64,000 nucleotides of DNA, taken from Waddliaceae bacterium. GTDB taxonomy: Bacteria; Chlamydiota; Chlamydiia; Chlamydiales; SLFE01. Positions 2,797-3,000 of this stretch are shown in pieces. The stretch's first letter is position 1; the number at the start of each line of letters is the position of its first letter. Below the pieces are notes generated by a model that was given only the letters and a program-made list of their open reading frames with translations, searched no databases and was not told the DNA's origin. The translations under genes were made by a program, and so were the position numbers. The stretch is from positions 1,344,001-1,408,000 of the forward strand of contig CAVYRW010000004.1 of NCBI GenBank assembly GCA_963771045.1, read 5' to 3'.

Positions 2797-3000
2797 ATCT
2801 TTTATCCTTCCTCGTTTTTGATTGTAAGAAAATATTGTACATCTTTTATTAGAAATTTTTCAAGGTCTACGTCGTTTCAGTAATTCCAAATTCAGGCTGG
2901 AGCTTACATTAGGCATGTAAATTTTACCTTGAATTGGCTTTGTTGCGTAATTAACCACAGAGCTCACAAGAGCGCACAGAGAGAATATGAGAGATTTGAT

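Follow-up and report, generated by a model that had tools for sequence, protein, structure and literature searches.

Why should the two ends of an insertion sequence of the IS903 type, whose terminal inverted repeats are normally about 18 bp long, resemble each other over 59 bp, and what connects the CAC-N-GAG words repeated in the additional sequence with the GxxExxY gene lying between them? The question is raised by an element found near one end of a 64,000-nucleotide stretch of the genome of a Waddliaceae bacterium (the window, in what follows, is this whole stretch). A perfect 9-bp target-site duplication brackets positions 2936-4499, which fixes the length of the element at 1,564 bp. Between these limits, an IS903-group transposase gene on the minus strand and a divergent GxxExxY gene are arranged as follows.

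2927..2935, plus strand: left copy of the 9-bp target-site duplication, CCTTGAATT, same as 4500-4508
2936..2953, plus strand: left terminal inverted repeat of the IS903 type, 14 of 18 bases as in the IS903B end taken from locus L180; tip common to cargo-less relatives
2954..2994, plus strand: left inner arm, three CAC-N-GAG units at a 9-10 bp period and a 13-bp tail; absent from cargo-less relatives
3001..3945, minus strand: IS5-family, IS903-group DDE transposase, 314 aa (NF033579, 289 bits)
3946..4029, no strand: region between the two divergent genes, with homology to the upstream end found in cargo-less relatives
4030..4437, plus strand: GxxExxY protein, 135 aa, a predicted PD-(D/E)XK nuclease (TIGR04256, 146.9 bits; PF13366)
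4442..4481, minus strand: right inner arm, three CAC-N-GAG units at a 9 bp period and a 13-bp tail (from the sequence and the MAFFT alignment)
4482..4499, minus strand: right terminal inverted repeat of the IS903 type, 16 of 18 bases as in the IS903B tip
4500..4508, plus strand: right copy of the 9-bp duplication, same as 2927-2935
27438..29001, minus strand: second whole copy in the window, 100% identical, with its own 9-bp duplication (blastn)

The genome carries 16 full copies of the element, each at least 99.87% identical; a perfect 9-bp duplication is present at 12 of them and absent at 4. This identity and the duplications indicate that the element transposed recently. The GxxExxY gene is present in all 16 copies, and all GxxExxY matches in the genome fall within copies of the 1,564-bp element. 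No array was found at the 13 insertion sites listed, which share only a loose AT-rich symmetry. Several fragments and one mosaic copy lie elsewhere in the genome. The mosaic (G000:C4:1701314-1704285) is 78% identical to the element over its first 1,223 bp and 100% over its last 349 bp; a 1.4-kb element that exists in 9 copies splits its GxxExxY gene, and the 9-bp duplication of the mosaic remains. At G000:C2:86178-86491 stands an internally deleted derivative of about 310 bp that has an array at each end and whose tips are damaged.

The transposase matches NF033579 well above its cut-off (289 bits against 140), is about 46% identical to the transposases of IS903B, ISSod12 and ISVa2, and conserves D120, D192 and E265, the putative DDE triad. 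Its dN/dS lies between 0.06 and 0.16. With a DDE transposase of this family, tips of about 18 bp and a 9-bp duplication, the element belongs to the IS903 group; a 9-bp duplication is also made by the IS903 composite Tn602 (PMC9282650). Its size and gene number nevertheless depart from the usual 1.05-1.15 kb and single gene of the group, so that it is a passenger-carrying variant. Indeed, IS903B is about 1,057 bp long, has no divergent second gene and no repeat arrays, and has ends alike for 18 bp, not 59; cargo-less relatives measure about 1,050-1,190 bp. A second transposase family of the same genome, 44-46% identical, has short tips and neither arrays nor passenger (G000:C4 near 48248-49138, 400009-400899, 956428-957318 and 2230311-2231192).

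In the preliminary description, the two arms had been aligned by hand at 47 of 59 positions, with three units in each arm and each arm beginning close to the stop codon of one gene. All this was recovered: 2936-2994 and 4442-4499 match at 47/59 columns (79.66% over 59 by blastn; MAFFT), the three units per arm are there, and the transposase and GxxExxY stops lie 6 and 4 bases inward of their respective arms. The 9-bp duplication is an addition to that description. Read inward, the left arm consists of a 20-bp tip, CACAGAG (2956-2962), CT, CACAAGAG (2965-2972), CG, CACAGAG (2975-2981) and a 13-bp tail, and the right arm of a 20-bp tip, CACTGAG (4479-4473), AC, CACCGAG (4470-4464), CT, CACTGAG (4461-4455) and a 13-bp tail. 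Each arm is thus two-layered, with an outer IS903-type tip of 18 bp and an inner CAC-N-GAG array of 41 bp. The inner layer is where the element parts from its cargo-less relatives. Positions 19-60 of its two ends are 79% alike, a value reached in none of 2000 shuffles (mean 0.43, maximum 0.64). The corresponding positions of 59 distinct relatives without cargo have a mean of 0.41 (maximum 0.67), against 0.90 for their tips; in 9 gene-bearing elements, inner-end identity is 0.74-0.88. The spacing between array and tip differs widely among elements.

What is conserved within the arrays bears on how they might be used. Among 27 distinct arms, the letters CAC and GAG hardly change whereas the middle bases and spacers do, a conservation that is partly built in, since many of these arms came from a pattern scan requiring the CAC/GAG letters. 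At the variable positions, the two arms of the present element agree at 1 of 7; the mean is 4.5 of 7 over 10 elements, compared with 2.5 when arms are taken from different elements. One could imagine that the arrays act as RNA or as structure: both transcripts would end, just after the stop codon, in an array of the same sense, CUC-N-GUG, serving as a 3' signal or a pairing stem, with or without a protein. In favour of this, the distance from stop to arm is 4-6 bases in the present element and about 5-25 bases in its relatives, a duplex between the arms comes out at -39 to -64 kcal/mol in 9 elements, and the better matching within elements than between them is what pairing would require. Yet this matching can be explained by recent copying, and the present element has kept the core letters with a single match at the variable positions. 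A single arm folds weakly as DNA (-2.4 to -4.9 kcal/mol) and, because the genes are transcribed away from each other, no transcript contains more than one arm. A search against Rfam gave no family (best E 0.62), and promoter and terminator scans stayed at chance level, with no terminator called at the arms and no consensus promoter in the intergenic region. We therefore regard a role as RNA or structure as improbable. Nearly fixed CAC and GAG letters with variable spacers, subject to the bias of the pattern scan, and the poor match between the arms of the present element favour a word that would be read as sequence, rather than pure pairing.

It had been predicted that relatives devoid of the passenger would lack the repeats. 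Relatives were found by transposase similarity alone, giving 110 loci (the best 80 matches of one search included) and 84 distinct proteins. Neither array nor gene is present in 71 of the 84, both are present in 3, and 8 are too short to call. The remaining 2 (L007 and L114) have arrays and no tblastn match to the gene, but neither stands as a gene-less array bearer: at L007 the last ten codons of the gene remain right behind the array, and the truncated L114 contig shares 127/127 bases with an overlapping contig of its genome, L093, that does bear the gene. All 5 array-bearers therefore have the gene or its trace, in agreement with the prediction. Close cargo-less relatives, with transposases 55-62% identical, have the same tips and 9-bp duplications and no arrays. 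The association was also seen from the opposite direction. A metagenome scan for a tip followed by an array, in which the gene was not part of the pattern, yielded 39 loci, 21 of them with transposase sequence (54-100% identical to that of the window); a GxxExxY gene is adjacent at 18 of these 21. Within the phylum, the tip-array junction occurs in 21 of 401 genomes, with 0 control matches. Locus L082, considered as a tip-bearing locus, has no tip-array junction on inspection. Decayed derivatives are many (L007, L158, L161, L169, L171), and several gene-less mini-elements keep arrays and perfect 9-bp duplications (L151, the inner element of L157, L171, L255, L258, L264).

The passenger belongs to the GxxExxY/PDDEXK_3 family by both curated cut-offs (TIGR04256, 146.9 bits against 35; PF13366, 141.2 bits against 22). 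These were its only profile matches, none being to GIY-YIG. G36, E39 and Y42 of the GxxExxY motif are invariant, as are E89 and K91 of the predicted PD-(D/E)XK site, D79 being nearly so. The structure model (pLDDT 91) matches mostly restriction enzymes, Cas4 and Hjc, with a modest best Z of 7.8 (rmsd 3.2, 113 aligned). On the strength of this fold and of the D...E-x-K site, the passenger is predicted to be a PD-(D/E)XK nuclease. A sequence search of the PDB returned no relative, and Foldseek gave no match to the model at E 0.001. The dN/dS of the IS-borne gene is 0.03-0.16 in 10 of 15 pairs, dS being saturated in the remaining pairs, which indicates that the passenger is under purifying selection. 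Related sequence appears in two metatranscriptome runs, each time as one 217-nt contig at a depth of 2-4, which is not evidence of expression. A complex prediction for the transposase with the GxxExxY protein gave a score of 0.00, which counts neither way. Members of the family were found in 154 of the 400 genomes searched from the phylum, and its homologues number at least 8,000. In the PDDEXK_3 description of PMC3424549, its function is listed as unknown and many transfers are noted; that description mentions no link to insertion sequences or repeats.

That similar repeats often flank free-standing GxxExxY genes had been put forward in the preliminary description. For chlamydiae this turned out to be so. 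The best 30 chlamydial GxxExxY loci were taken, 2 of which are IS-borne; an inward array of at least two units was found at 18 of the 28 others, compared with 0 of 100 distal control windows, and the other 10 have no array by the pattern used. One of the 28, L099, is in fact bounded by IS tips; it is also counted among the 77 non-IS loci considered below. In samples from two other phyla, the exact CACnGAG word is in the minority (2/24 and 7/23 loci), but arrays of related words with a 9-bp period are common there (14/24 and 11/23 loci, compared with 5 of 179 controls). The type of word follows the branch of the protein. Among the 77 non-IS loci, which include chlamydiae as well as other phyla, GAG-type words accompany 35 proteins of at least 50% identity and GAT/GAA-type words 3; below 50% identity the corresponding numbers are 0 and 20, and 19 loci are unclassed, it being understood that the word classes were defined after the flanks were inspected and that kin among the loci are not independent. 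Joint inheritance of gene and arms, without recognition, could also be the source of this match. Nevertheless, with a word type that tracks the protein branch and core letters that are conserved, the CAC-N-GAG arrays are probably recognition sites of the GxxExxY protein. The host genome also holds gene-less arrays without IS tips (G000:C4 near 1320138, 2113111, 1690203 and 887895), that near 1320138 being a complete hairpin with both arms, a short distance upstream of a gene; such arrays are possible substrates in trans.

The preliminary description further saw in the element an IS903-type insertion sequence fused to a GxxExxY module that has repeats on its flanks. This is supported by the two observations just reported, that cargo-less relatives are without arrays and that other GxxExxY genes are flanked by them. 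How often the fusion took place was approached with trees. In the transposase tree (36 rows, the distant ones thinned), 13 array-bearing rows form one clade (100/99) and a second pair, L149 and L162, stands among cargo-less elements; a single origin of the array-bearing IS903 elements is not rejected by this tree (p-AU 0.09). The passenger tree does reject a single clade of IS903-borne genes (p-AU 0.0008, with L099 relabelled as tip-bounded and bootstraps not fully settled). In it, the L149 gene, which is of the CACCGAG type, groups with free genes having CACCGAG arrays (98/94). Moreover, an unrelated two-frame IS5-family element (NF033580) of genome G335 carries a complete arm-gene-arm module between its transposase stop and its tip. 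This element is 1.4 kb long (L234:1832-3228, also L235, L236 and L240) and exists in 6 full copies at least 96% identical; its arrays are at one end only, around the gene and not at the tips. From the rejection in the passenger tree, the grouping of L149 and the G335 element, it is likely that the module was captured at least three separate times by IS5-family elements. A further family, about 75% identical to the G335 element and in many copies, seems to carry an internally deleted module.

The sub-clades of the transposase and passenger trees largely match. At L145 and L167, the transposase groups with the lineage of L005 and the GxxExxY protein with that of the window, pointing to an exchange of halves between element lineages. 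It is very improbable that a single accidental capture left the gene and arrays behind as neutral remnants: the many decayed derivatives listed above would be expected of such remnants, but the idea is contradicted by dN/dS values of 0.03-0.16 with synonymous sites near saturation, by the retention of the catalytic residues and by the several captures.

Taken together, these observations describe an IS903-group element that has multiplied recently and whose 59-bp arms probably combine an outer tip that the DDE transposase would bind and cut with an inner array, of the type found around free GxxExxY genes, that was probably captured along with the gene and would be recognised by the predicted nuclease. 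The parts of this reading are not equally firm. Very probably, the DDE transposase would move the unit through the outer tips as in IS903, because tips and duplication length equal those of cargo-less relatives, and we are about as confident that arms and gene would derive from a free arm-gene-arm module. Since a tip cannot shift relative to its inner neighbour by transposition, the arrays must have reached the inside of the tips by another route. The likeliest route would begin with the landing of a module inside a small IS903 mini-element. Indeed, tip-arm-gene-arm-tip units without a transposase exist (L157, L099). The transposase core would then have been gained between the 5' arm and the gene. 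The GxxExxY gene starts about where cargo-less relatives have their terminal repeat, and the intergenic region, aligned with the upstream end of 8 such relatives, scores above all 300 shuffles for 4 of them (L006, L122, L126, L139) and at or below the shuffle maximum for the other 4. This likeness and this position fit a module housed in a mini-element that gained its transposase core later. Alternatively, a one-ended insertion may have been followed by copying of the arm, and L157 could be a deletion product instead of an intermediate. Inside the GxxExxY gene of the larger tip-bounded, transposase-less unit at L157, a 167-bp tip-array mini-element is inserted at 430-596, with a perfect 9-bp duplication.

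If the module reached the tips through a mini-element, what would its protein do there? It probably binds the CAC-N-GAG words, to judge from the distribution of word types. A tentative further step, drawn by analogy, is that it might nick DNA close to the arms, whether single-stranded or paired, in the way that Ssn nucleases act on their own repeats. Ssn proteins are GIY-YIG nucleases with NTS/SRM repeats, hairpins of 20-50 nt, and demonstrated cleavage of single-stranded DNA (PMC11893778). Like them, the GxxExxY module is a small single-domain gene for a (here predicted) nuclease between repeats of its own, found across taxa, with a repeat variant that shifts with the protein lineage and gene-less copies of the repeats in the same genomes. 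It differs by its predicted PD-(D/E)XK fold, by repeats that are 9-bp words in tandem and can pair solely with those of the opposite arm, and by its carriage inside a DDE insertion sequence. Nicking of this kind would keep the module copying and the arms homogenised, so that the gene would ride the insertion sequence as a self-maintaining partner and would not be needed for the transposition chemistry. The weak folding of single arms, unlike the short Ssn hairpins, and the match at 1 of 7 variable positions in the present element speak against the reading as a whole.

Two other roles would tie the arrays more closely to transposition. The arrays may have come with the module and now be subterminal sites for the transposase or a host protein, the gene being kept for another job such as defence or regulation. 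In two IS903 lineages they do follow immediately on the tip at either end, and they are still present in mini-elements that have a perfect 9-bp duplication and no gene. This is nonetheless unlikely, for close cargo-less relatives move with the same tips and duplications and without arrays, the same arrays stand at free genes in the absence of any transposase, and those of the G335 element surround the gene at one end and are not at the tips.

The other role recalls Tn7, an element that combines a DDE transposase with a PD-(D/E)XK protein and has an array of sites at each end. The present element has these same components. Its nuclease would, on this analogy, be a working partner that binds the arrays beside the tips, cuts one strand and alters the outcome of transposition, for instance by allowing the element to excise cleanly or the donor site to be repaired. 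TnsA belongs to the PD-(D/E)XK superfamily (PMC3424549), the fold predicted for the passenger, and the arrays of the two ends mirror each other; a long shared residence at low dN/dS, the largely matching sub-clades of the two trees and the high copy number are all in keeping with a partnership. On the other side, the element has no TnsC or TnsD, its transposase is of another family, as its second protein appears to be, its cargo-less relatives transpose without a nuclease and with the same duplication length, the distance from array to tip varies widely between elements, and halves reassort between lineages (L145/L167). No TnsA profile matched in the profile searches; TnsA is also absent from the 50 fold matches listed for the passenger, an absence that does not exclude TnsA likeness. 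A partnership of the TnsA kind has, in our opinion, only a slim chance of being correct, and we prefer a module that would read its own word from within the ends of an insertion sequence and might maintain itself there.

Among known mobile elements, the closest in layout is the transporter IS (tIS), a single insertion sequence with a passenger gene between its terminal repeats (PMC9330008). As in a tIS, the passenger here lies inside one pair of terminal repeats and moves along with them; the difference is that it is a predicted nuclease bringing its own repeat arms, which have become a subterminal part of both ends. Neither element nor repeats are described in the titles and abstract openings of the literature searched; an entry in a database such as ISfinder is possible. 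The element is an IS903-group transporter IS with hybrid ends, and the module of nuclease and repeats on which it is built is apparently undescribed. Common as GxxExxY genes are, the literature cited gives them no function. Here such a gene is paired with a short, defined candidate site in a unit whose movement can be scored, and the function of the family is therefore open to direct test. Should the protein read its own word, GxxExxY proteins would be to the PD-(D/E)XK fold what Ssn nucleases are to GIY-YIG, and variants of different specificity would exist in nature. The element also gives an example of one small selfish module that has probably boarded insertion sequences repeatedly and remodelled their ends. 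More boldly, GxxExxY proteins may form a large undescribed class of repeat-guided site-specific nucleases. In the present lineage, an IS903 transposase would then have recruited one of them as a second enzyme, working at the arrays inside both ends, and a minimal transposon with just two enzymes, DDE and PD-(D/E)XK, would have arisen on more than one occasion; this we hold to be unlikely.

The surroundings of the element show other traces of mobile DNA. An IS256-family element with 27-bp inverted ends occupies positions 4564-5960 of the window, 64 bp from the right end of the element, and is present in 6 copies in the genome. Farther on, at 6295-7757, a split serine-recombinase-like gene with Recombinase and zinc-ribbon domains runs into a tRNA-Leu (7620-7702), which suggests the end of a decayed integrated element.
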